A stretch of DNA of 64,000 nucleotides from Alphaproteobacteria bacterium. Lineage in GTDB: Bacteria > Pseudomonadota > Alphaproteobacteria > MPNO01. The position numbers were made by a program, and so were the translations under genes. Below the pieces are notes generated by a model. It had not been told where the DNA came from, did no database searches, and saw only the letters and a program-made list of their open reading frames with translations. Where the stretch lies: contig CBDFLJ010000001.1 of assembly GCA_965248835.1 (NCBI GenBank), positions 512,001-576,000 on the forward strand. Direction: 5' to 3'. This document shows positions 50,855 through 63,678 of the stretch, in pieces; positions within the stretch are counted from its first letter, which is position 1; every line of letters begins with the position of its first letter.

Positions 50855-51619
50855 ATGATCGCGCCGGCCATGTCCGCAGACGCCCTGCTCGTCATCGTCA
50901 CCGCCCTGCTGATCGGCTCGATCGGCAAGGCGATTACCGGCTTCGGCCTGCCGCTGGTCGCGATACCGGTGATGGCGGTCTTCATCGGTGTCGAGACCGC
51001 GGTGGTCGTGATGGTGATCCCGGCCGGCTATTCCAACCTCGCAATGTTGTGGGAATTCCGCCGGTCCGCCGGCACGGTGCCCGGGCTCTGGCTCGCGATC
51101 GGCCTCGGCCTGTTCGCCATCGCGTTGGGGACATGGCTGTTGAAGGTGCTCGATCCGGCACTGCTTCGGCTGGTCCTTGCCGGATGGATCGGGGTCTATC
51201 TGGCAAGCCGCGCCGTCGGCGTTACGATGCCGCCGGCAGCCGGCCGGCGCCGCGCGATGGTTGCCGCCGCAGTCGGGCTCGGCGGCATCTGCCAAGGGGC
51301 GACCGGGATCGCCGGTCCCATCGTGGTCACCGCGATGCACGCCCTGCGGCTCGACCGCGCCGTTCTGGTCTACGTGCTGTCGGCGATCTTCTTCTCCTAT
51401 TCGATCGCCCAGATCACTTCGATGACCGCTTTCGGCCTGCTCACCACCGAGCGCGTGATCCAGGGCCTGATCGCCATGGTCCCGGTCATCGCCGGCACCT
51501 GGCTCGGCCTGAAGCTCGGCCGCCGGATCGACGCACGCACGTTCAACATATGCGTCTTCGTGCTGCTCTCGGCGATGGCGCTCAAGCTCGCCTATGACGG
51601 CATTACCGGCCTGGGCTAA
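50855..51619 (+). CDS. TauE/SafE-family membrane protein
   Basis: KAITGFGLP, GATGIAGP, multiple TM segments; start may be 50870. Confidence 0.83.
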   Translation: MIAPAMSADALLVIVTALLIGSIGKAITGFGLPLVAIPVMAVFIGVETAVVVMVIPAGYSNLAMLWEFRRSAGTVPGLWLAIGLGLFAIALGTWLLKVLDPALLRLVLAGWIGVYLASRAVGVTMPPAAGRRRAMVAAAVGLGGICQGATGIAGPIVVTAMHALRLDRAVLVYVLSAIFFSYSIAQITSMTAFGLLTTERVIQGLIAMVPVIAGTWLGLKLGRRIDARTFNICVFVLLSAMALKLAYDGITGLG

Positions 51620-51628
51620 GATCGCGCG

Positions 51629-51745
51629 ATGTCGTGGACCCTGCTCGCCGCCGCAGCTTTCGCCGCCTGGGCGGGGCTGGTCTTCGGGCGCGGTCGGGCG
51701 TGGAAGAGCTGGATCTGCCGGCCGGCGGGCGGTGATGACGGCTGA
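51629..51745 (+). pseudogene. Probable internally deleted remnant of hopanoid glycosyltransferase hpnB
   Basis: MSWTLLAAAAFAAWAGLVFGRGRAWKSWICRPAGGDDG*; overlaps the hpnC start; resembles fused HpnB N- and C-termini. Confidence 0.55.
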
Positions 51746-52604
51746 GGCGTCCTACGAGGCCCCGTCGGGCAAGTGGTGGGGCGAGGAGAACTTTCCGGTC
51801 GGCTCGTGGCTGCTGCCGGCCCGGCTGCGGCCGCATGTGGCCACCTACTACGCGATCGCCCGGACCACCGACGATATCGCCGACAACCCGGCGCTGGCGC
51901 CCGAGGAAAAGCTTCGCAGGCTGGAGGCCTTCGAAGACGCGGTCCTCGGCAAGCGGGCCGAGGATCCGGCGCTCGCCAAGGCGCACCGCATGCGCGAGAG
52001 TCTCTCGCAGACCGGGCTCGGCCCACGCCATGTGCTCGACATCATCACCGCATTCAAGCAGGACACGACCAGGCGCCGCTACCGCGACTGGGACGAGCTG
52101 ATGGGCTATTGCTTGCTTTCGGCCGCCCCGGTGGGGCGTTACCTGCTCGACCTGCACGGCGAGGACCGCGCCGGTTGGCCGGCATCGGATGCGCTGTGCA
52201 ACGCGCTCCAGGTGCTGAACCACCTGCAGGACTGCAAGGACGACTATGTCGACCTCGACCGGGTCTATCTGCCGCAGGACTGGATGGATGAGGCGAGAAC
52301 GACGGCCGCCGCGCTCGATGCGGCGGCCGCAAGCCCGGCGATGCGCGCTGTCATCGACCGCGCGCTGGACGGAGTCGAGGCGCTGATGGTCCAGGCACGC
52401 AGCTTGCCTGGACGCTTGGCCAACCGGCGACTGGCGATGGAATCGGCGGTGATCGTGCGTCTTGCCGACCGGCTTGCGGTGCTGTTGCGGACCAACGATC
52501 CGATCGCAGGCCGGATCGCGCTCCGCCGTTGGGACTTCGCACGCTGCGGGATCGCCGGCGTTCTGGCCGGCCTGCTGGGCCGGCCTCAGAGCGGCTCGGA
52601 ATAG
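51735..52604 (+). CDS. hpnC: Hydroxysqualene synthase HpnC
   Basis: ENFPVGS, DDIAD, SAAPVGR, ALQVLNHLQD, RVYLP. Confidence 0.9.
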   Translation: MTAEASYEAPSGKWWGEENFPVGSWLLPARLRPHVATYYAIARTTDDIADNPALAPEEKLRRLEAFEDAVLGKRAEDPALAKAHRMRESLSQTGLGPRHVLDIITAFKQDTTRRRYRDWDELMGYCLLSAAPVGRYLLDLHGEDRAGWPASDALCNALQVLNHLQDCKDDYVDLDRVYLPQDWMDEARTTAAALDAAAASPAMRAVIDRALDGVEALMVQARSLPGRLANRRLAMESAVIVRLADRLAVLLRTNDPIAGRIALRRWDFARCGIAGVLAGLLGRPQSGSE

Positions 52605-53453: not shown

Positions 53454-54353
53454 TCAGCCCAACAACCCGTATCGGAAAGCGAGCCATATCTTGGCCGGCC
53501 TGGATATGCCCACCGGATGGTCGAGCCTGCGCCAGCCGCGCTGCTCCAGCCCGTCGAGCAGGCGCTTGTAGTTCATCATCATGACGACCGCCGGTCGCAG
53601 CGGGCCGCTGCGGCAATCCGCGCGCGCGGTGTCGGCCTCGGCGAACCGTTCCCGCGCGATCCGCGCCAGCGCCGTGCACACCTCGGGCAGCGCCGGATGG
53701 GCGAGCACCGCGCGGGGCGAGACGGTGTGGATGCCGGCCTCCGCCAGCAGCTCACAGGGCAGATAGAGCCGCCCGTCCTCGGCATCTTCGCCGAGGTCGC
53801 GCAGGATGTTGGTGAGCTGCAGCGCCGTGCCGAGGGCCAGCGCGAAGTCCTTCGCACGGGACTCCTCGGCCCCGAAGGCCCGGATCGACAGCAGACCCAC
53901 CGCGCCGGCCACGCGCTGGCAATAGAGCTCGAGCACCGCCATCGAGGGCGCCTGCAGACCCTCGCCCACGTCCATCGCCATGCCGTCGATCACGGCGAGG
54001 AAGTCTTCGCACCGCAGACCGAATGCGGCGACCGGCCCGCACAGCGCCCGCGCCGTCAGGCTCTGCGGACGCGATCCGTCATAGATCCGGGCGATGTCGC
54101 CGCGCCAGGCGTCCAGCCGGCACCGCTTTTCCGGCACCGGATCCGGACCGTCGGCGATATCGTCGACCTCGCGGCAGAACGCGTAGATCGCGAACATCGC
54201 ATCGCGGCGGTCAGCCGGCAGCAGCCGCATCGCCCAGTAGAAGGACGAGCCGGATGCAGCCGTCCTCGCGCGGGCATGCGCGATCGCTTCGGAGTCCGGC
54301 GCTCCGATTTCGGCAATGCGCGCAGAGACCAGGCGATCAGCGCGGGCGGGCAT
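53454..54353 (-). CDS. hpnD: Presqualene diphosphate synthase HpnD
   Basis: GSSFYWAM, FCREVDDIAD, YCQRVAGAVG, ALQLTNILRD, RLYLP. Confidence 0.9.
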   Translation of the reverse strand: MPARADRLVSARIAEIGAPDSEAIAHARARTAASGSSFYWAMRLLPADRRDAMFAIYAFCREVDDIADGPDPVPEKRCRLDAWRGDIARIYDGSRPQSLTARALCGPVAAFGLRCEDFLAVIDGMAMDVGEGLQAPSMAVLELYCQRVAGAVGLLSIRAFGAEESRAKDFALALGTALQLTNILRDLGEDAEDGRLYLPCELLAEAGIHTVSPRAVLAHPALPEVCTALARIARERFAEADTARADCRSGPLRPAVVMMMNYKRLLDGLEQRGWRRLDHPVGISRPAKIWLAFRYGLLG

Positions 54354-54544
54354 ATCGACCGGCGGTCCGCGCTCCGGCCGAAGCCGATTCTGCAGATGTC
54401 ATCGCCATTCCACGTCGCCTCCACAGCCCCGCGATCCCGGCTGGCGAGCCGGCCGGGATCGCGGGGGACAGTGCGGAGTTTAGCAAGCCGGCGCGAACCG
54501 GCGGAATCGAAATTCTCGCATCCCGGCGGCGTTGGCAGCGGGCC

Positions 54545-54627: not shown

Positions 54628-54861
54628 ATGCCCCTCCCCTATGACGAGCCGGAAAACGTCGTCTGGCAGACGCAGATCGTTGCGCCGCCGGATGCCTACG
54701 CGATGGCTCTGGCCGATGCGCTGGAAGCGATTTTCGGCCAGGGGATCCACGAAATCGACGGCATCGTCGCACGACTGAACGAGAGCGGCCCGCGACCGGC
54801 AGGAGCGGATGCGTGGACCCCTTCGGTCTTCGAGGCGGAGATGGTTCGCCTGGGCGCATGA
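54628..54861 (+). CDS. Small recombinase-like helix-turn-helix protein associated with Rieske oxygenases
   Basis: LADALEAIFGQGIHEIDGIVARLN...WT...FEAEMVRLG; GGAGA RBS. Confidence 0.72.
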   Translation: MPLPYDEPENVVWQTQIVAPPDAYAMALADALEAIFGQGIHEIDGIVARLNESGPRPAGADAWTPSVFEAEMVRLGA

Positions 54862-54871
54862 TCACGGAGAG

Positions 54872-55921
54872 ATGACCATGTCCGCAGAGCAGAGCGCGCA
54901 TGAGCAGGCCGAGGCGCTGGTCGATCTCGGTGTTCGCAACCGCTGGTACCCGATCGCGGCAAGCTGGATGGTCAAGGACCGGCCCGTCGGGCTGATGCGG
55001 CTGGGCGAGCCGATCGTGGTGTGGCGCAACGGCGAGGGCGCGGTCCAGGTCCTGGCCGACCGCTGCCCCCATCGCGGGGCGCGGTTGTCGATGGGCTGGA
55101 ACCTGGGTGACAGGCTGGCCTGCTGGTATCACGGCGTCGAGGTGGGCGGCGGGGGCGTAGTTCAGAGGGTCCCCGCCATCAGCGACTGCCCGCTGGTCGG
55201 TACCGCGGCGGTCAAATCCTATCCCTGCTTCGAGCACATGGGCGCGATCTTCGCCTATTTCGGCGATGCCGCGCATCCCGAACCGGTCGCGTTCACCCTG
55301 CCCGAACAGCTCGATTCCCCTGAATGGGACGCGATCCTGTGCACCGCGCACTGGCGCTGCAACTACCGGTATGCGATCGACAACGTGATGGACCCGATGC
55401 ACGGCGCCTATCTGCACGCCAAATCCCATTCGATGGCCGATGGCGACAAAGAAGCCCGGATGCGGGTGCGCCAGACCGATGAAGGTCTGGTCTTCGAGAA
55501 AACCGACCAGCGCGGCGTCAACTTCGACTGGGTGGAGTTCGGCGATACCGGCGCGCACTGGATGCGCCTGTCCATCCCCTACCAGAAAAACGCCGGGCCG
55601 GGCGGCGAGTTCGGAATCATGGGCTTCGTCACGCCGATCGACCACGAGAACTGCCGGGTCTTCTTCTGGCGCACGCGCAAATGCACCGGCTGGCAGAGGG
55701 CTGCCTGGCGGTTCATGTACAAGCACAAGCTCGAAACCCTGCACTGGGACGTGCTGGAGCAGGACCGCACGATCCTCGAGCGCCTGCCGGGCGATGCACG
55801 CGATCACGAGTTCCTCTATCAGCACGACACCGGCCTGGCGCGGGTGCGGCGCATGCTCCACGAGCAGGCCGAGGAGCAACTCGCCGCGCTGGCCGCCGCC
55901 AACGCCCAGGCCGCGGAGTGA
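54872..55921 (+). CDS. Rieske non-heme iron oxygenase alpha subunit
   Basis: DRCPHRG...CWYHG (2Fe-2S), DNVMDPMHGAYLH (mononuclear Fe), EQD. Confidence 0.93.
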   Translation: MTMSAEQSAHEQAEALVDLGVRNRWYPIAASWMVKDRPVGLMRLGEPIVVWRNGEGAVQVLADRCPHRGARLSMGWNLGDRLACWYHGVEVGGGGVVQRVPAISDCPLVGTAAVKSYPCFEHMGAIFAYFGDAAHPEPVAFTLPEQLDSPEWDAILCTAHWRCNYRYAIDNVMDPMHGAYLHAKSHSMADGDKEARMRVRQTDEGLVFEKTDQRGVNFDWVEFGDTGAHWMRLSIPYQKNAGPGGEFGIMGFVTPIDHENCRVFFWRTRKCTGWQRAAWRFMYKHKLETLHWDVLEQDRTILERLPGDARDHEFLYQHDTGLARVRRMLHEQAEEQLAALAAANAQAAE

Positions 55922-56664
55922 GCACGGTCTCGCTCGCAGGCAGGCGGGTGCTGATCACCGGCGCCGCACGCGGGCTCGGCCGCTGGTTCGCCGAGGAAGC
56001 GCTTGCCGCCGGGGCGCGCGTGGCGATCGCCGACATCCTGGAGGACGAGGGCCGCGCCACGGCCGAGGCGCTGGGCGCGGTCTTCATGCCGCTCGACCTC
56101 GAGGTTCCGGACTCGATCGAGGCCTTGGCCGGTTCGGCGGGCGCGGCGCTGGGCGGCCTCGACGGGCTGGTCAACAACGCGGCCATCGCCACCGGCATCG
56201 GCGGCAGGACCTGCGAGGAGATCGATATCGAGACCTGGGACCGGGTGATGCGGGTCAACGTCCGCGGCACTTGGCTGATGACCAGGGCCTGCCTGCCGCA
56301 CTTGCGCGGCAGCGGCAACGCCAAGGTGGTCAACATCGCCTCCGACACTGCGCTGTGGGGCGCGCCGCGCCTGCTGCACTACGTCTCCAGCAAGGGCGCG
56401 GTGATCGCGATGACCCGTGCGCTCGCCCGCGAGCTCGGCGGCGACGGCATCGCGGTCAACGCGGTCGCACCGGGCCTGACCCTGGTCGAGGCGACCGCGT
56501 ACGTGCCCGAAGAGCGTCACCGGCACTATGTCGAGGGCCGCGCGATCAGCCGTGCGCAGCGGCCCGAGGATGTCGTCGGCGCGGTGATGTATCTGCTGTC
56601 CGATGCGGCCGATTTCGTCACCGGCCAGCTTCTTCCGGTCAACGGCGGCTTTGTCATGAACTGA
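55918..56664 (+). CDS. SDR oxidoreductase
   Basis: TGAARGLG, VNNAA, YVSSK; GTGA overlap with the Rieske gene stop. Confidence 0.9.
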   Translation: MSTVSLAGRRVLITGAARGLGRWFAEEALAAGARVAIADILEDEGRATAEALGAVFMPLDLEVPDSIEALAGSAGAALGGLDGLVNNAAIATGIGGRTCEEIDIETWDRVMRVNVRGTWLMTRACLPHLRGSGNAKVVNIASDTALWGAPRLLHYVSSKGAVIAMTRALARELGGDGIAVNAVAPGLTLVEATAYVPEERHRHYVEGRAISRAQRPEDVVGAVMYLLSDAADFVTGQLLPVNGGFVMN

Positions 56665-56692
56665 GCCGGTCAAGCTTTCACAGGAGAGCCCG

Positions 56693-57199
56693 ATGAGCAC
56701 CAAGTTGGAGACCACCACACGAGACCTCCAGGACTGGATGGAGAGCCGCATCGCGCGCTTCCAGACGCGCCGCTACGACTGGGACGCGCTCAAGTTCCAG
56801 GCCGATTTCGACCCGAAATACCGCCGCGCGCAGATGCGCTATATGGGCACCGGCGGGACCGGCGTCGCCAGCGACATGAACAGCGTGCCGTGCGAGCACT
56901 TCACCTTCTCGACGATGGTCCTGCCACCGGGCTGCGAGGGTCCGATGCATGTCCACGACGATGTCGAGGAGGTGTTCTTCATGCTGCGCGGCCGGATCCG
57001 GCTGAGCTTCGAGCAGGACGGCGAGACCTGGCAGACCGTGCTCGACGAGCGCGATCTGGTTTCGGTGCCGCCCGGGGTCTATCGCGGCTTGATCAACGAA
57101 GGCCAGGAGGAGGCGCTGATGTGCGTGATGCTGGGTGCCTCCAAGCCGAAGATCCCGACCTATCCGCCCGATCACCCGCTGGCCGGGATCAAGCGCTGA
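56693..57199 (+). CDS. Cupin-domain protein
   Basis: GPMHVHDDVEEVFF, SVPPGVYR. Confidence 0.87.
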   Translation: MSTKLETTTRDLQDWMESRIARFQTRRYDWDALKFQADFDPKYRRAQMRYMGTGGTGVASDMNSVPCEHFTFSTMVLPPGCEGPMHVHDDVEEVFFMLRGRIRLSFEQDGETWQTVLDERDLVSVPPGVYRGLINEGQEEALMCVMLGASKPKIPTYPPDHPLAGIKR

Positions 57200-57209
57200 G
57201 CCGTTCGGC

Positions 57210-58028
57210 ATGGCCGACCAGGACCTTCCGGCGCTGCGGACCGTCCAGGCGGGCGGCCGGACGATCGCCTACCGGGAGGCGGGAAGCGGGCCGGCGGTGT
57301 TGGCCTTGCACGGCATCGGCTCGGGCTCTGCCTCCTGGGCCGCCCAGTTCGCGGCGCTATCGTCCGGGTTCCGGGTTGTGGCCTGGGACGCGCCGGGCTA
57401 CGGCGGCTCCGATCCGCTGCCCGGCGAGACGCCGAGCGCGGCCTGCTACGGCGACGCGGCGGCTGCGCTGCTGGATGCGCTCGACATCGGCAAGGTCCAT
57501 CTCCTCGGCCATTCCATGGGAGCGCTGATCGGCGCCGCGTTCTGCCGCCACCACCCCGGCCGGCTGCTGTCGGTGGTGCTGGCCGATGCGGCCGCGGGAT
57601 ACGCCAAGGCCCCGGACGAACTGCGTGTCGGCCGGCTGGAGGCGCGGCTCGCCGCGATGGCCGAGCTGGGACCGGTCGGGCTCGCGGCGCGCCGGGCGCG
57701 CGAACTGCTCTCGCCAGGCGCAACCGATGAGACCTACGAAATCGTCCGCGCGGCGCAGAGCCGGCTGCGCCCGGACGGCTATGCCCAGGCCGCGCGCATG
57801 CTGCACGGCTCGGATATCCACGATGATGCGGCAACCATCGCGGTGCCGGCGCTGGTGATGTGCGGCAGCGAGGATTCGGTGACACCGGAGGACATCAGCC
57901 GCCGCATCGCCCGGATTATTCCCGGCGCGCGCTACCGCACCCTCGAAGGCCTGGGGCACGCGAGCTACGTCGAAGGACCGGCGGTCTTCAACCAGGCGCT
58001 CACCGAATTCATCGACACCGTGTCATGA
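57210..58028 (+). CDS. Alpha/beta-fold hydrolase
   Basis: LHGIG, WDAPGYG, GHSMG, EDSVT, GHASY. Confidence 0.9.
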   Translation: MADQDLPALRTVQAGGRTIAYREAGSGPAVLALHGIGSGSASWAAQFAALSSGFRVVAWDAPGYGGSDPLPGETPSAACYGDAAAALLDALDIGKVHLLGHSMGALIGAAFCRHHPGRLLSVVLADAAAGYAKAPDELRVGRLEARLAAMAELGPVGLAARRARELLSPGATDETYEIVRAAQSRLRPDGYAQAARMLHGSDIHDDAATIAVPALVMCGSEDSVTPEDISRRIARIIPGARYRTLEGLGHASYVEGPAVFNQALTEFIDTVS

Positions 58029-58834
58029 GCGACAAGACGCCGCAGGACCGCTACATCGTGCCGGCATTGCAGCGCGGGCTGGCGATCCTCGGCAGCTTCG
58101 ACCGCGACCGGACGGTCCTGACGATGGTCGAGCTTGCACGGATCAACGCCCTGCCCCGCGCGACCGCCTTCCGGCTGGCGCACACCCTGGAAGCCATGGG
58201 CTTCCTGGTGCGCGAGCCCGGCGGGCAGGGCTATCGACTCGGCCCCGCCGTGCTGTCGCTCGGCTTCGGCTACCTCGCCGGGCTGGAGCTGCCCGGGATC
58301 GCGCGGCCGGTGCTGGAGCGTCTGCGCGACGCCACCGGGGCGTCCGCGCATCTCGCGGTCCGCGACGGGGTGGAGATCGTCTATCTGGTCCAGGTCTCCG
58401 GGCAGTCGGCGCTGACCAGCAATATCGGAGTCGGCTCGCGGCTGCCGGCGTATGGCTCGACCATGGGGCGGGCGCTGCTGCTGGACCTCCAGGCGCAGGC
58501 GCTTTCGGACATCTTCGGCGCCGCGCCGCTGGCGGCGATGACCGACCAGACCCCGGAGACGGTCGAGGCGCTGGCGCGTATGCTGGCCGAGGACCGCGGC
58601 CGGGGCTATGTCGCCAGCCGGTCGTTCTACGAGCGCGGGGTCGTCAGCGTCGCCGCGCCGGTGCGCGATGAAGCGGGCGCCATCGTCGCCGCCGTCAGTG
58701 TGGTCACCTCCGAGCATGCGCTGGATGCGGAGGCCATGCACGGCGCCGTGAAAGACCGGGTGCTCGAGGCGGCGGCGGAAATCTCGCAATGGCTCGGCCA
58801 TCACCCGGCCGGCCTGAGCAGCGCCGCGGAATAG
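58025..58834 (+). CDS. IclR-family transcriptional regulator
   Basis: VPALQRGLAIL, RATAFRL, GSRLPAYGSTMGRALL, SVAAPV. Confidence 0.92.
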   Translation: MSDKTPQDRYIVPALQRGLAILGSFDRDRTVLTMVELARINALPRATAFRLAHTLEAMGFLVREPGGQGYRLGPAVLSLGFGYLAGLELPGIARPVLERLRDATGASAHLAVRDGVEIVYLVQVSGQSALTSNIGVGSRLPAYGSTMGRALLLDLQAQALSDIFGAAPLAAMTDQTPETVEALARMLAEDRGRGYVASRSFYERGVVSVAAPVRDEAGAIVAAVSVVTSEHALDAEAMHGAVKDRVLEAAAEISQWLGHHPAGLSSAAE

Positions 58835-58852
58835 CAACGGACGGGGACGGGC

Positions 58853-59635
58853 GTGGATCTGGAGCTGACGGGCAAGGTCGCGGTGATCACGGGCGGCTCG
58901 TCGGGTATCGGCCTGGCCGCGGCGCGGCTGTTCCTCGCCGAAGGCGCGAAGGTTGCGATCTGCGGCCGCGATCAGGGCCGCCTGGACGACGCGGTCGCAG
59001 CGCTCGGTGCGGAGAACAGTTTCGGATTCGGCTGCGACGTGCTCGATGCCGAGGCGGTAACGCGGTTCCGCGACGGCGTCGGCCGACGATTCGGCCGCGC
59101 CGACATCCTGGTCAACAACGCCGGCCAGGCGCGGATGAAGCCGTTCGCCGAAACCAGCGATCAGGACTGGCGCGACGAGCTCGATCTCAAGTTCTTCAGC
59201 GTCCTGAACCCGACGCGCGCATTCCTGCCCTTGCTCGAAGCCGCCGCCCCTTCGGCGATCGTGTGCACCAACGCCCTGCTCGCCCGCAGGCCGGAGCCCC
59301 ACCTTATCGCCACCGGGGCTGCGCGCGCCGGCGCGCTGAACCTCGCCAAATCGCTCAGCCGGGAGTTCGCGCCCAAGGGGATACGGGTCAACTCGATCCT
59401 CATCGGCCTGGTCGATTCCGGGCAATGGCGGCGGCGCTACGAGAACGGCGACGGAGGTGGGCTTAGCATGGAAGAATGGTTCGCCGAGCTGGCCGTGGAC
59501 CGGGACATCCCGCTGGCCAGGCTCGGCAGCAGCGAGGAGGCCGCCAAGGTGATCGTCTTCCTGGCTTCGCCCGCGGCGAGCTTCCTGACGGGCTCGGCGA
59601 TCGAGGTCGCCGGCGGGCAGGGCCGCCATGTCTGA
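58853..59635 (+). CDS. Atypical SDR oxidoreductase (lacks YxxxK)
   Basis: TGGSSGIG, VNNAG, PEPHLIATGAARAG, SGQWRRR. Confidence 0.87.
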   Translation: MDLELTGKVAVITGGSSGIGLAAARLFLAEGAKVAICGRDQGRLDDAVAALGAENSFGFGCDVLDAEAVTRFRDGVGRRFGRADILVNNAGQARMKPFAETSDQDWRDELDLKFFSVLNPTRAFLPLLEAAAPSAIVCTNALLARRPEPHLIATGAARAGALNLAKSLSREFAPKGIRVNSILIGLVDSGQWRRRYENGDGGGLSMEEWFAELAVDRDIPLARLGSSEEAAKVIVFLASPAASFLTGSAIEVAGGQGRHV

Positions 59636-61289
59636 GCGGATCGGCGCGGGCGAGATCGTCGCTTCGTTCCTGGAGGCCTGCGGGGTCGAGGCGGCCTACG
59701 GCGTGATCAGCATCCACAACATGCCGATCCTCGATGCGATCGGCCGGCGCAACCGGATCCGCTTCGTCACCGCTCGGGGCGAAGGGGCGGCCGTCAACAT
59801 GGCCGATGCCCATGCCCGGGTCTCCGGCTGCCTCGGGGTGGCGTTCTCCAGCACCGGGACCGCCGCCGGCAATGCCTGCGGCGCGCTGGTCGAGGCCCAG
59901 ACCGCCGGCACCGCACTGTTGCACATCACCGGCCAGATCGAGTGTGCCTATCTGGATCAGGACAGGGGCTACATCCACGAGGCGCGCGATCAGCTCACCA
60001 TGCTGCGCGCGGTCTCCAAAGCCGCCTACCGCGTAATGAGCCCGCAGACCCTGCTCGGCACCTTGCGCGAGGCCGCCCGCGTCGCGCTCAGCCCGCCGGC
60101 CGGACCCGTCAGCATCGAGATCCCGATCGACATCCAGGAGGCCGCGATCGCGCGGCCCGGCGACATCGCCCCCGTCCCGGCGATCGTGCCCGAGCCCGAC
60201 CCGGCGAGCCTGGATGCGCTTGCCGACGCGCTGGCCGGCGCCAAACGCCCGATCCTGTGGCTCGGCGGCGGCGCGCGCGGGGCCGCGGCCGAGGCGCGCG
60301 CGCTGGTCGAGCTCGGTTTCGGCTGCGTGACCAGCATCCAGGGCCGCGGCACGGTCGCCGAGGGACACCCCCGCTCGCTGGGAGCGTTCAACTTCCAGCC
60401 GCCGGTCGAGGCGCTCTATCGAAGCTGCGATGCGATGCTCGTCGTCGGCTCTCGCCTGCGCGGCAACGAGACCCTGAAATATCGGCTCGCGCTCCCCGAC
60501 CCGCTCTACCGGATCGACGCCGATGCGCGGGCCGACGGCCGCTCGTTCGCAAACGCGCAGTTCATCGCCGGCGATGCCGCGCGGGCGTTGGGCGGGCTCG
60601 CGGACCGGCTGGCCGGCCGGATCGCGGTCGATGCGGGCTTCGATGCCGATATCGCCGCCGCGCGGCAAGCCGCCGAGACGGCGATGCGCGCCGCGCTCGG
60701 CCCCTACGAGCGTCTGGTCGAAGCGCTTCAGGACGCGGTGCCGGCGGATCTCGTCTGGGTGCGCGACATCACGCTGTCCAACAGCATGTGGGGCAACCGG
60801 AGGCCGCGCCTGTCGGGGCCGCGCGACGGAGTCCACGCACTGGGCGGCGGGATCGGCCAGGGCCTGCCGATGGCGATCGGTGCCGCGATCGCCGCCGGAG
60901 CGCGCAAGACCGTGGCCATGCTCGGCGACGGCGGGTTCGCCGTCACCCTGGGCGAGATCGCGACCCTCGTTCAGGAGCGGGCGCCGGTCGCGCTCATCGT
61001 CATGAACGACCGCGGCTACGGGGTGATCCGCAACATCCAGGACCGCCAGTTCGAGGGCAGGCGGTATTTCGCCGACCTCAGCCTGCCCGACCTCGGGAAA
61101 CTCTCCGAAGGGCTCGGCCTGCCGTTCCGCAGGATCGGCGAGGAGGACGCCATCGGCCCGGCGCTCGATTGGGCGATCGGCCAGGACGGGCCGGCGTTGA
61201 TCGAGATCGATATGATCGCATTGGGGCCTTTCGCGCGGCCTTTCGCCGGACCGCCGGTCCGCGAGGTCGAGATCGAGGCCAAGGCGTGA
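59628..61289 (+). CDS. Thiamine pyrophosphate-dependent enzyme (ALS-like fold)
   Basis: GVISIHN, ARGE, TPP motif GDGG...MNDRGYG. Confidence 0.9.
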   Translation: MSERIGAGEIVASFLEACGVEAAYGVISIHNMPILDAIGRRNRIRFVTARGEGAAVNMADAHARVSGCLGVAFSSTGTAAGNACGALVEAQTAGTALLHITGQIECAYLDQDRGYIHEARDQLTMLRAVSKAAYRVMSPQTLLGTLREAARVALSPPAGPVSIEIPIDIQEAAIARPGDIAPVPAIVPEPDPASLDALADALAGAKRPILWLGGGARGAAAEARALVELGFGCVTSIQGRGTVAEGHPRSLGAFNFQPPVEALYRSCDAMLVVGSRLRGNETLKYRLALPDPLYRIDADARADGRSFANAQFIAGDAARALGGLADRLAGRIAVDAGFDADIAAARQAAETAMRAALGPYERLVEALQDAVPADLVWVRDITLSNSMWGNRRPRLSGPRDGVHALGGGIGQGLPMAIGAAIAAGARKTVAMLGDGGFAVTLGEIATLVQERAPVALIVMNDRGYGVIRNIQDRQFEGRRYFADLSLPDLGKLSEGLGLPFRRIGEEDAIGPALDWAIGQDGPALIEIDMIALGPFARPFAGPPVREVEIEAKA

Positions 61290-61293
61290 TCGA

Positions 61294-62091
61294 ATGTTGA
61301 ACGTCGCTCTGATCGGCTTCGGCGCCATCGCCCAGGAGGTGATCAGCCATATCGGCGCCGACGACCCGGCGAAGATAACCGGTGTCATCGTCCGCCCCGG
61401 CCGCGCCGAGGCGGCCCGCGCGGTCCTTGACGCCGGCGTGGCGGTCGCGGAGTCCTTGGACGGGCTGCCCGCCAGACCTGACCTGATCGCCGAATGCGCC
61501 GGTCACGGCGCGGTCGCCCAATACGGCGCGGCGGCGCTGCGCCGCGGGATCGATTTCCTGGTGATCTCGATCGGCGCGCTGGCCGACCGCGATCTCGGCG
61601 CCAGGCTCGAGCAGGCGGCCGAGGCCGGCGGCGCCAAGCTCATCCTGCCGGCCGGGGCGGTCGCCGGGGCCGACGCGCTGACGGCCGCCCGCGTCGGCGG
61701 GCTCGCGCGCGTCACCTACACCTCGCGCAAGCCGCCCGGGGCGTGGAAGGGTACCCCGGCCGAGGCGGCCCACGACCTGGAGTCGATGTGCGCCGAGACT
61801 GTCCTGTTCGAGGGGCCGGCCGACCAGGCGGCCAGGCTCTATCCGCAGAACGCCAACGTGGCCGCGACCATTGCGCTTGCCGGCGCCGGCTTCGATGCCA
61901 CTGCCGTCCGGTTGGTCGCCGACCCGCAGGCCGGCGGCAATATCCATCAGGTCCATGCCGAAGGAGCGTTCGGCGCCTTCGACATCGAGGTGCGTGGCCG
62001 CCCGCTGCCGGACAACCCCAAGACCTCGACCCTGGCCGCCCATTCCGTGGTGGCCGAAATCCGCCGCCGCGCGGCCGCAATCGAGATTTAG
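61294..62091 (+). CDS. nadX: L-aspartate dehydrogenase-family protein
   Basis: IGFGAIA, ECAGH, SIGALAD, RKPP, YPQNANVAA, NPKTS. Confidence 0.88.
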   Translation: MLNVALIGFGAIAQEVISHIGADDPAKITGVIVRPGRAEAARAVLDAGVAVAESLDGLPARPDLIAECAGHGAVAQYGAAALRRGIDFLVISIGALADRDLGARLEQAAEAGGAKLILPAGAVAGADALTAARVGGLARVTYTSRKPPGAWKGTPAEAAHDLESMCAETVLFEGPADQAARLYPQNANVAATIALAGAGFDATAVRLVADPQAGGNIHQVHAEGAFGAFDIEVRGRPLPDNPKTSTLAAHSVVAEIRRRAAAIEI

Positions 62092-62096
62092 CCGAG

Positions 62097-63026
62097 ATGA
62101 TCATCGACTGGCACACCCACGCCTACCCGCCTGAAGACCAGGCGCACGCGTTCTGGAAGGGCCGCTGCCCGATCACCATCGAGAACGTGCTGGCCGCCCA
62201 CGAGCGCGGCGGCATCGACGTCACCGTGATCAGCAACCCCTTTCACGAGCTCGCCCAGATGGAGCCGGACGACCAGCTCAGGAACGTCCGGCGCATGAAC
62301 GACTTCCTGGCCGGGCAGCGGGACAGGCACCCCGACCGGCTGGTCGCCTTTGCGACCGGCGTTCCCTGTGGCGGCGACGGTTTCCTCAAGGAGACCGAGC
62401 GCGCGGTCCGCGCGCTCGATCTGCGCGGGGTGATCGCGATGTCGAGCCTCAAGGGCGCCTATCCCGACGACGACGCGGCGAAGCCGTTCTTCGGGCTGAT
62501 CGAGGCGCTCGGCGTGCCGGTGATGATCCATCCGCCGGCCGTTGCCTTCGGCGAGGAGCGGCTGCGCGAGTACCGGCTGGCCTCGAGCATCGGCCGGCCG
62601 GCGGACAACTGCCTGGCCATCGCCCGGCTCCTGGTCCGCGGCATTTTCGAGCAGTTTCCCGACCTCAAGCTGGTCGGCTCGCATCTCGGCGGCGGCATTT
62701 GCGAAGTGATCGGCCGGATGGAATACGCCTACGAGCTCCAGGACGAGGCCTATTTCCTCGGCCCCTACGAGCCGATGCTGATCCGACATTCGCCGATGCA
62801 CTATCTGAAGATGATGTATCTGGATTGCGTCTGCTACCACGCGCCAGCCGCGCGGTGCGCGATCGAGACCATCGGTGCGGACCGGATCATGTTCGGCACC
62901 GATTCCCCGCCGCTCTACCCGTTGAAGGAACGCGGCCTGGAGGTAATCCAGGGCCTTGGGCTCGCTGCGAGCGAGGAGGCGAAAATCCTGAGCGGCAACG
63001 CGAAGCGCTTATTGAAGCTCGACTGA
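62097..63026 (+). CDS. Amidohydrolase-2 family protein (ACMSD-like decarboxylase/hydratase)
   Basis: IDWHTH, MIHP, HLGGG, MFGTDSP. Confidence 0.87.
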   Translation: MIIDWHTHAYPPEDQAHAFWKGRCPITIENVLAAHERGGIDVTVISNPFHELAQMEPDDQLRNVRRMNDFLAGQRDRHPDRLVAFATGVPCGGDGFLKETERAVRALDLRGVIAMSSLKGAYPDDDAAKPFFGLIEALGVPVMIHPPAVAFGEERLREYRLASSIGRPADNCLAIARLLVRGIFEQFPDLKLVGSHLGGGICEVIGRMEYAYELQDEAYFLGPYEPMLIRHSPMHYLKMMYLDCVCYHAPAARCAIETIGADRIMFGTDSPPLYPLKERGLEVIQGLGLAASEEAKILSGNAKRLLKLD

Positions 63027-63051
63027 TTTGCAAACCAGGGAGGCAAGACCG

Positions 63052-63678
63052 ATGAGCGATGCGGCAAACGTTCAGGGCCAGGTGCTGGACGACAAAACCA
63101 TCGAGCCCAGAGGGCACTATGCGGGCGAAGTCAGGGCGGGAGAGGTATTCCGGATCATCGATATCGAGGGCGAGCAGGTCGCCGATTTCCTGTGCTTCAA
63201 CCTCGCCCGGCTGGAAGAGAAGCTCTCGCCGCACAACACGCTGCTGTTGAACGGCTCGGTGTTCCCCGGCATCGGCTACACGCTGTTCTCCGATGAGGCG
63301 GGCAGGCTGATGACGATCACCGCCGATACCTGCGGCACCCACGACATGATCGCCGGCGCCTGCTCACGGTTCACCAACGAATACCGCTACCACATCCCGG
63401 ACCTGCCCAACTGCCGCGACAACTTCGCCGCGGCGCTGGCCCCCTGGGGGATCACCTGGAAGCAGGTCCCCTACAACATGAACGTCTTCATGAACTGCCC
63501 GATCCAGCCCGACGGCGGCTTTTCGATCGAGCTGCCCAAATCCAAGGCCGGCGACCATATCGACTTCACCGCCGACATGGATGTCCTGGTCGCCATGTCG
63601 AACTGCCCGCAGGAGCGCAACAAGTGCAACAACTTCAAGGTCAAGCCGATGCGGGTCATCCACTACCGCCCGGGCTGA
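63052..63678 (+). CDS. DUF1989 / urea carboxylase-associated family protein
   Basis: DIEGEQVADF, DTCGTHD, GACS, NCRDNF, NVFMN, SNCPQ. Confidence 0.87.
   Translation: MSDAANVQGQVLDDKTIEPRGHYAGEVRAGEVFRIIDIEGEQVADFLCFNLARLEEKLSPHNTLLLNGSVFPGIGYTLFSDEAGRLMTITADTCGTHDMIAGACSRFTNEYRYHIPDLPNCRDNFAAALAPWGITWKQVPYNMNVFMNCPIQPDGGFSIELPKSKAGDHIDFTADMDVLVAMSNCPQERNKCNNFKVKPMRVIHYRPG

Follow-up and report, generated by a model that had tools for sequence, protein, structure and literature searches.

The window analysed here is a stretch of 64,000 nucleotides from an alphaproteobacterial genome (contig CBDFLJ010000001.1, positions 512,001 to 576,000 of the forward strand). At 54628-63678 it carries an eleven-gene operon encoding a Rieske oxygenase with a small HTH_62 protein, two short-chain dehydrogenases/reductases (SDR1 and SDR2), a metal cupin, a serine hydrolase, an IclR-family regulator, a thiamine diphosphate (ThDP) enzyme, a member of the aspartate dehydrogenase (AspDH) family, an Amidohydro_2 protein and a DUF1989 protein (Table 1). 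The map of open reading frames (ORFs) and a Pfam/NCBIfam scan of the window place all eleven genes on the plus strand, and by their coordinates adjacent genes overlap by 4-8 nt or are no more than 28 nt apart, in agreement throughout with the layout that an earlier sequence-only reading had described. A convergent luciferase-like gene lies directly after g11 and the operon therefore ends at 63678. The eleven genes are a real operon and probably a single catabolic unit under IclR control, and genes 1-9 are the reduced alphaproteobacterial form of a gene set that is widespread in Pseudomonadota and probably breaks down a nitrogen-containing ring acid.

Table 1. Genes of the operon and the palindrome upstream of it, with positions in the window.
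Feature	Position	Strand	Description
palindrome TTTCATATATGAAA	54590-54603	none	AT-rich inverted repeat, 25 nt upstream of g01; putative IclR operator
g01	54628-54861	+	77 aa; HTH_62, PF20552, E 3.6e-19; proposed small subunit of the Rieske oxygenase
g02	54872-55921	+	Rieske E 2.6e-18 and VanA_C E 1.2e-15; alpha-only (VanA_C / homotrimeric) oxygenase
g03	55918-56664	+	classical SDR (SDR1); adh_short_C2 E 7.9e-55; candidate dihydrodiol/alcohol dehydrogenase
g04	56693-57199	+	metal cupin; Cupin_2 E 3.7e-12
g05	57210-58028	+	alpha/beta-fold serine hydrolase; Abhydrolase_1 E 1.3e-29
g06	58025-58834	+	IclR-family regulator, PcaR/PobR-like; IclR_C and HTH_IclR
g07	58853-59635	+	atypical SDR (SDR2); NF005468 378 bits against cut-off 266
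g08	59628-61289	+	ThDP enzyme, candidate 2-oxo-acid decarboxylase; three TPP_enzyme domains; NF005470 818 bits against cut-off 495
g09	61294-62091	+	aspartate dehydrogenase family; NF009828 315 against 177; NF009827 288 against 226
g10	62097-63026 (alternative TTG start 62088)	+	Amidohydro_2 E 9.4e-34; ACMSD/LigW/IDCase branch
g11	63052-63678 (alternative TTG start 63028)	+	DUF1989, PF09347, E 5.1e-53

The genome of the window (G000, 4.89 Mb) is rated 100% complete with 9.5% contamination. Of 41 genomes belonging to the same genus, family and order, 31 have an ortholog of its ThDP enzyme with 55% identity or more, while the other ten contain only paralogs of at most 34% identity. At 20 loci of these relatives tblastn gave the order HTH_62, Rieske, (SDR1), cupin, hydrolase, (IclR), SDR2, ThDP, AspDH, the genes in brackets being optional, and the synteny was also found at 12 loci from other classes; gene order at high-GC loci was taken from the tblastn maps. 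The clusters of genus g6 carry neither SDR1 nor the IclR gene, and in families f3 and f4 a NitT/TauT-type ABC transporter is inserted between the HTH_62 and Rieske genes. A Rieske ortholog (E <= 1e-60) occurs in 14 genomes of a 401-genome sample of the phylum.

A scan of species genomes gave at least 579 stretches with relatives of the cupin, and the cluster counts below refer to the best 80 of these cupin-anchored loci, 56 of which are available with the full 20 kb. The 80 loci include metagenome-assembled genomes labelled Alphaproteobacteria, Rhodospirillaceae and Defluviicoccus as well as isolates of Cupriavidus, Ralstonia, Acinetobacter, Halomonas, Zobellella, Kluyvera, Advenella, Pigmentiphaga and others. 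As the search anchor, the cupin is by definition found in each of the 56 full-length loci; it is accompanied by the hydrolase in 52, AspDH in 52, SDR2 in 50, the Rieske oxygenase in 47, HTH_62 in 44, SDR1 in 44, IclR in 41, an aldehyde dehydrogenase (ALDH) in 39, the ThDP enzyme in 38, a VOC extradiol dioxygenase in 35, and a ferredoxin and a reductase in 18 each. The closest known system is the orthologous cluster of beta- and gammaproteobacteria (Cupriavidus, Ralstonia, Acinetobacter, Halomonas, Zobellella, Kluyvera and others), which has the gene types 1-9 in nearly the same order at 40-75% identity. The copy in Pseudomonas aeruginosa PAO1 we take to be about PA3504-PA3514. The recurrence of the first nine genes in these classes, which the sequence-only reading had stated, is thus real, and the cluster search that it had proposed recovered the conserved set both there and in the window's own alphaproteobacterial order. 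As a separate observation, one related genome carries two copies of a seven-gene cluster with near-equal scores and opposite orientation, about 1.1 Mb apart (G007:C1:27431-29068 and 1154286-1155923).

Many copies are fuller than the one in the window. In an enterobacterial-type copy (L036) the order is Rieske ferredoxin, HTH_62, Rieske oxygenase, SDR1, IclR, a two-domain VOC extradiol-type dioxygenase, a ferredoxin reductase of the glutathione-reductase type, an MFS transporter, cupin, hydrolase, SDR2, AspDH and ALDH. Rieske ferredoxin, reductase, SDR, VOC extradiol dioxygenase and hydrolase together make up the classical set for aromatic dihydroxylation and meta-cleavage. In two genomes (G335 and G416) the set is divided into two separate blocks, each with its own IclR gene: cupin-hydrolase-IclR-AspDH on the one hand and SDR1-IclR-SDR2-ThDP-ALDH-VOC ... 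HTH_62-Rieske on the other. The first of these blocks also stands alone in Advenella and two Pigmentiphaga genomes (L128, L140, L147), and at the two of these loci that were scanned for neighbours (L128 and L147) it adjoins a TctC-type carboxylate receptor. Because of the split blocks and the stand-alone loci, we read the set as two modules, module A consisting of the Rieske oxygenase with HTH_62, SDR1, SDR2 and the ThDP enzyme, and module B of cupin, hydrolase and AspDH; the stand-alone loci suggest that module B can act by itself on an imported carboxylate. Of the earlier view of a single pathway operon, the conserved cluster therefore stands, but it is built of modules, and the window has a reduced version.

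The reduction concerns the Rieske ferredoxin, the ferredoxin reductase, the VOC extradiol dioxygenase, ALDH and the MFS or ABC transporter, all of which occur in fuller versions and are absent here, so that g02 has no dedicated ferredoxin or reductase in the operon. The absence of reductase, ferredoxin, ALDH, nadA and nadC from the operon had been noted before and holds. The VOC gene is missing also from the other alphaproteobacterial copies of the same order, in contrast to 35 of the 56 full-length loci elsewhere. At other places in the genome there are a ferredoxin and reductase pair with 44% and 42% identity (G000:C2:404722-406197), VOC homologs of 41-43% identity at two loci, and, as the best match to the ALDH of the fuller versions, proteins of only 35-36% identity. 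The genome contains no ortholog of the cluster's ABC transporter, the best matches being paralogs with 42-48% identity, and its binding protein has no match in the genome at E <= 1e-10. Because no ferredoxin, reductase, extradiol dioxygenase, ALDH or transporter is linked to it, we infer that this copy serves a simpler, monocyclic substrate than the full beta- and gammaproteobacterial versions, or else draws on unlinked genes. Three of the ALDH matches have identical scores and lie near contig ends (G000:C1:3818-5266, C1:2280110-2281558 and C2:2601120-2602568), which looks like a repeat or duplicated assembly ends.

The Rieske oxygenase g02 has the motifs CPHRG...C.YHG and DPMHG..LH, conserved in 30 orthologs, and with them the Rieske CxH...CxxH and mononuclear-iron DxxHxxxxH signatures. 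Its best solved relative is DdmC (E 2.7e-22, the match covering the Rieske domain and no more than the beginning of the catalytic domain); it has a weak match to PF11723 and falls below every NCBIfam cut-off, the best model giving 67.7 bits against 600, so it belongs to no characterised subfamily among these models. As an alpha-only oxygenase it resembles those of three-component systems with meta-cleavage enzymes, namely the carbazole system (CarAa/Ac/Ad with CarB and CarC) and 2-oxoquinoline 8-monooxygenase, to which it matches at about E 1e-13 to 1e-20, the matches again being confined to these two regions. The fuller versions share with these two systems the Rieske-type ferredoxin, the glutathione-reductase-type reductase, the extradiol dioxygenase and the serine hydrolase, whereas the carbazole and 2-oxoquinoline systems lack a cupin, a ThDP enzyme and an aspartate dehydrogenase. 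To our knowledge, they also have no HTH_62 partner.

This partner, g01, had been listed as a helix-turn-helix (HTH) mini-protein; the present data make a regulator role unlikely. Across the 80 loci, an HTH_62 gene lies on the same strand at most 300 nt upstream of 56 of the 66 Rieske orthologs and, with a transporter in between, at most 4.5 kb upstream of seven more, which brings the linkage to 63 of 66; the remaining three Rieske orthologs are at contig ends, where the sequence upstream is too short for a judgement. Conversely, in a 301-genome sample all ten PF20552 matches of at least 62 bits, one of them in a paralogous pair on the second contig of the window's genome, have such a Rieske gene no more than about 3 kb away, and nine weaker matches (about 30 bits or less) belong to longer open frames of 115-565 aa. 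The orthologs of g01 are acidic in 22 of 22 cases (pI 4.05-5.05, net charge -3 to -11) and therefore unlike a DNA-binding domain; neither a basic surface nor independence from one partner gene, as looked for in a DNA-binding HTH protein, was found for g01.

A model of the g01-g02 complex reached a score of 0.81, compared with 0.00 for the best of three controls. Among 80 solved complexes 58 attain this mark, as do 2 of 110 mismatched pairs; since own alignments were used, these counts apply here only roughly. The runs agree in at least 92% of the contacts with a partner predicted local distance difference test (pLDDT) value of at least 87, and the predicted interface joins the invariant L28, F36, G39 and F68 of the HTH_62 protein to the invariant W274, F281, Y283, E288 and W292 in the catalytic domain of the oxygenase. 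Modelled as a single chain, HTH_62 has a pLDDT of 71.5; it has no relative in the PDB by sequence and none by fold at E <= 0.001, and in the ESM Atlas it matched clusters of its own family only. Because HTH_62 is without a solved relative, the complex score is unlikely to be a memory of a known complex. Judging from linkage, charge and model, the HTH_62 protein most likely serves the Rieske oxygenase as a subunit or chaperone and is more probably not a DNA-binding regulator. If true, the predicted small subunit would be a new type of component for Rieske oxygenases, and the Pfam family HTH_62, now named as a recombinase-like DNA-binding domain, would need re-annotation.

Three further Rieske loci were observed. 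A paralogous pair of HTH_62 and Rieske genes is present on the other contig (G000:C2:933561-934809, L045; Rieske 52% identical), where its neighbours are NitT/TauT-type ABC transporter genes, a second Rieske protein, a pyridine-nucleotide-disulphide reductase, an SDR and an amidase, and it looks like a further cluster built on the same type of oxygenase pair. A distant Rieske paralog (36% identity) and a ThDP paralog (31%) lie less than 4 kb apart at G000:C2:1701689-1706773 (L047), and the Rieske ortholog at G335:C7:201450-202454 has one in-frame TGA.

Among the remaining enzymes of the conserved set, the cupin g04 is the most conserved protein, with 71-75% identity between alphaproteobacterial and beta- or gammaproteobacterial copies. 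Its H86, H88, E92 and E93 are invariant, and by the general cupin consensus there is no His in the second motif. Its AlphaFold2 model (pLDDT 76) matched generic cupins only in a Foldseek search of the PDB. Weak sequence matches to 3-hydroxyanthranilate dioxygenase were found (E 0.009-0.018); g04 is not a member of that enzyme's family, PF06052, and three true members are present at other loci of the genome (C2:1775563, C1:1483750 and C1:1324165). The hydrolase g05 has a Ser-Asp-His triad (GHSxG, Asp, His) conserved in 28 orthologs and is closest to PcaD (TIGR02427), although at 131.1 bits it stays below the cut-off of 255.85. SDR1 (g03) reached no NCBIfam cut-off.

In SDR2 (g07) the catalytic Ser-Tyr-Lys is replaced by Ala-Thr-Arg, unchanged in 31 of 31 aligned orthologs, while the cofactor motifs TGxxxGIG and NAG are kept; the earlier description of a Tyr-less SDR was accurate. 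The protein is the ortholog of Q9HYA2 of P. aeruginosa PAO1 (PDB 3LF1/3LF2; E 2.6e-85 over the full length), in which TxxxR likewise replaces YxxxK, as cited in PMC8659612; no function assigned to Q9HYA2 was found. For the ThDP enzyme g08, a GDG...N-D motif and a Glu near residue 52 can be read by eye in the translation; the nearest solved relatives are found at only E 1e-43, and it has no close named relative.

The regulator g06 finds its nearest PcaR/PobR model in TIGR02431, with 193 bits against a cut-off of 284.75. Allowing up to two mismatches, the palindrome TTTCATATATGAAA has no second occurrence in the 4.89-Mb genome, and similar palindromes lie upstream of g01 orthologs at several other loci (L011, L012, L022, L023, L025, L029 and L037); from this pattern it is the probable operator of g06.

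The aspartate dehydrogenase g09 passes the cut-offs of NF009828 and NF009827 and remains below that of TIGR03855 (184.5 against 206.55). The His of its N-I-H motif aligns with the N-I-H of 2DC1 (Archaeoglobus fulgidus) and 1H2H (Thermotoga maritima), i.e. the canonical position, and both the N and the H are invariant in 27 orthologs. It thus shares family and catalytic His with NadX (T. maritima 1J5P/1H2H, A. fulgidus 2DC1), but it forms part of a catabolic operon and has neither nadA nor nadC linked to it. The P. aeruginosa ortholog of g09 is reportedly active in vitro. A catabolic role for g09 is argued by its conserved place within the cluster. That this family can work on ring-cleavage products follows from human ASPDH, which is reported to reduce the ring-cleavage enamine 2-aminomuconate and to have its catalytic His shifted by two residues (bioRxiv 10.64898/2026.06.05.730449); the His of g09 is unshifted, in contrast to the metazoan enzyme described there.

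The last two genes had been suspected of being additions, and orthologs of Amidohydro_2 and DUF1989 indeed occur in none of the 80 other cluster loci: the presence of g10 and g11 in the cluster is an addition specific to the window's genus. The closest PDB matches of g10 are ACMSD (E 1e-21), LigW (E 1.9e-21) and IDCase (E 1.8e-19), and an N-terminal H-T-H can be read by eye in its translation; it matched none of the NCBIfam families and so has no equivalog-level assignment. In the sister species G002 the ortholog of g10 is frameshifted and spread over three frames (L011, 12464-13383), being either a pseudogene or an assembly error, and the DUF1989 gene there is intact at 87% identity. G007 has an 80% identical ortholog of g10 at another locus, beside HpaB-like, UbiD-like and iron-alcohol-dehydrogenase genes. 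We also considered Amidohydro_2 and DUF1989 as a travelling pair and rejected this, as the orthologs in G007, G444, G039 and G446 have no DUF1989 gene in their 1.5-kb flanks. As for g11, the sequence-only reading had pointed out that DUF1989 includes the carboxyguanidine deiminase CgdAB; g11 is a DUF1989 protein, but it does not reach the cut-offs of the UAAP / carboxyguanidine deiminase type models (TIGR03424, UAAP2, 172.3 against 284.7; TIGR03425 115.6 against 205.95). Its solved relatives are the N-terminal domain of trimethylamine N-oxide demethylase and two proteins of unknown function (3ORU among the matches). Decarboxylation by g10 and C-N cleavage by g11 are plausible guesses.

Based on these data, our best reading, to which we assign a probability of roughly 0.5, is that this two-module, IclR-controlled operon converts a nitrogen-containing aromatic acid to (imino)aspartate. 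The Rieske oxygenase, with its small subunit, and SDR1 would hydroxylate a nitrogen-containing aromatic or heteroaromatic carboxylic acid, after which the cupin and the hydrolase would open and split the ring. The product would be iminoaspartate or a closely similar alpha-imino or enamino dicarboxylate, which AspDH would interconvert with L-aspartate or oxaloacetate, and SDR2 and the ThDP enzyme would trim the 2-oxo-acid fragment. In this genus an ACMSD/LigW-type decarboxylase and a DUF1989 enzyme would be appended at the 3' end.

Several points weigh against this reading. The searches returned no substrate, product or expression datum for any ortholog. Genus g6 keeps the Rieske protein without SDR1, which makes for a poor fit to a dioxygenase forming a cis-dihydrodiol, and this copy has no ring-cleaving VOC enzyme. 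The cupin, for which the fold search gave generic cupins only, could be an isomerase, a decarboxylase or a hydrolase. The ThDP step appears dispensable, because the enterobacterial-type copies (L035, L036 and L038) have lost the ThDP enzyme and kept AspDH. The latter could also just assimilate released ammonia or feed oxaloacetate, the substrate containing no aspartate skeleton. The complex score, as support for the subunit role, is a measure of model confidence, and a search of the whole genome for unlinked regulon members by their operator found only the operon's own site.

In the papers searched we found no substrate assigned to the set or to orthologous clusters, in line with the sequence-only reading; nor did the searches return a paper naming two or more of PA3505-PA3511 or one linking aspartate dehydrogenase with an extradiol dioxygenase, a cupin or IclR, and they met A1S_0951-0956 in expression lists only.

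A more specific version of our reading is put forward tentatively, and we regard it as doubtful when taken as a whole. In it, the HTH_62 mini-proteins would not bind DNA; a separate clade of alpha-only Rieske oxygenases would instead require them as its small subunit, and the set would represent a route for N-heteroaromatic 2-carboxylates to which genes have been lacking, in its full form the kynurenate ('quinoline') pathway and here a monocyclic lower half, ending in the conversion of iminoaspartate to L-aspartate by a catabolic AspDH.

Several hundred bacterial species carry the gene set, among them Alphaproteobacteria of soil and sea as well as Cupriavidus, Acinetobacter and enterobacteria, and the identity of its substrate would give a role to the structurally solved oxidoreductase Q9HYA2, which lacks a function, and a physiological role to the 'mesophilic' aspartate dehydrogenases; possibly it would also supply the genes of a pathway so far described by its enzymology alone. 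The copy in the window is further useful as a natural minimal variant, showing which genes travel together and which are optional.

Other substrates have to be weighed against our best reading. The kynurenate pathway of pseudomonads comprises the activities EC 1.14.99.2, 1.3.1.18 and 1.13.11.10 and proceeds by 7,8-dihydroxylation, dehydrogenation, 8,8a extradiol cleavage, reduction and trimming of the side chain, and opening of the pyridone to aspartate. That the operon itself is this classical pathway we consider unlikely, although the full beta- and gammaproteobacterial versions, with Rieske oxygenase, ferredoxin, reductase, SDR1, VOC enzyme, atypical SDR, ThDP enzyme, ALDH, hydrolase and AspDH, have enzyme types that can be laid on its steps, and the N1-C2(COOH)-C3-C4 portion of kynurenate would in our interpretation provide the aspartate skeleton. 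The literature searched assigns no genes to the pathway, and Acinetobacter species carry the set; growth of A. baumannii on kynurenic acid is stated in a review (PMC10732645). Because the extradiol step is missing, however, the pathway does not fit the copy in the window as it stands, while the full versions fit on paper. The window operon lacks not only the extradiol dioxygenase but also ALDH, ferredoxin and reductase; its nearest VOC homologs, at 41-43% identity, lie elsewhere without an operator site; genus g6 lacks SDR1 in addition; and no experiment linking any ortholog to kynurenate was found in the literature searched.

It is quite unlikely that the substrate is a nitrogen-free aromatic acid and that AspDH, the ThDP enzyme and SDR2 form a shunt from aspartate to oxaloacetate and on through malonate semialdehyde, or serve ammonia assimilation. 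The constant adjacency of these three genes would suit such a shunt, as would the roughly two-fold increase of A1S_0956-0958 (AspDH, aldehyde dehydrogenase and ThDP enzyme) of A. baumannii on mucin, listed under amino-acid catabolism in PMC5757984. Against it, AspDH accompanies the cupin and the hydrolase, with neither the ThDP enzyme nor SDR2, at the stand-alone loci L128, L140 and L147, and it is kept where the ThDP enzyme has been lost (L035, L036 and L038).

An amino-substituted benzene ring of the aminophenol or hydroxyanthranilate type, with the cupin acting like 3-hydroxyanthranilate dioxygenase, g10 like ACMSD, and AspDH on a product resembling 2-aminomuconate, ranks last among the substrate alternatives and seems improbable to us. 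The weak cupin matches to 3-hydroxyanthranilate dioxygenase, ACMSD as the best solved relative of g10 and the ALDH in fuller versions would all fit, and the 2-aminomuconate reductase activity reported for human ASPDH in that preprint would supply the third step. The cupin, however, is outside PF06052, whose three true members lie elsewhere in the genome; g10 is missing from the cluster outside this genus, and the sister species has a broken copy; and the His of g09 is canonical and not at the shifted position given for the reductase there.

That g09 is a NadX for de novo nicotinamide adenine dinucleotide (NAD) synthesis and only incidentally in the operon, a way out that the sequence-only reading had itself raised, can practically be dismissed in spite of its scores over the NCBIfam aspartate dehydrogenase cut-offs, since 52 of the 56 full-length loci keep AspDH within the catabolic cluster and this 100%-complete genome contains no NadA by TIGR00550 or PF02445, models that match 12 of 14 reference genomes as a control, so that g09 does not feed a quinolinate synthase. 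The genome does have nadC, on the other contig, and three homologs of 3-hydroxyanthranilate dioxygenase, and tryptophan 2,3-dioxygenase was not found in it; 3-hydroxyanthranilate may be the starting point if NAD is made de novo at all.

Regarding the surroundings of the operon, a scan gave no promoter-like sites and three terminator-like sites, compared with 3.0 expected by chance. Upstream there are squalene/phytoene-synthase-like genes and a glutathione S-transferase gene on other strands, and between a minus-strand squalene/phytoene-synthase-like gene and g01 lies an inverted repeat of 19 nt (54427-54466, 95% complementary, 2-nt loop). The squalene/phytoene-synthase-like genes, at 51594-52604 and 53454-54353 in the window, have a counterpart near the cluster in family f4 (L029, 791-1933), and such neighbours in another family suggest an old, conserved chromosomal position of the cluster.

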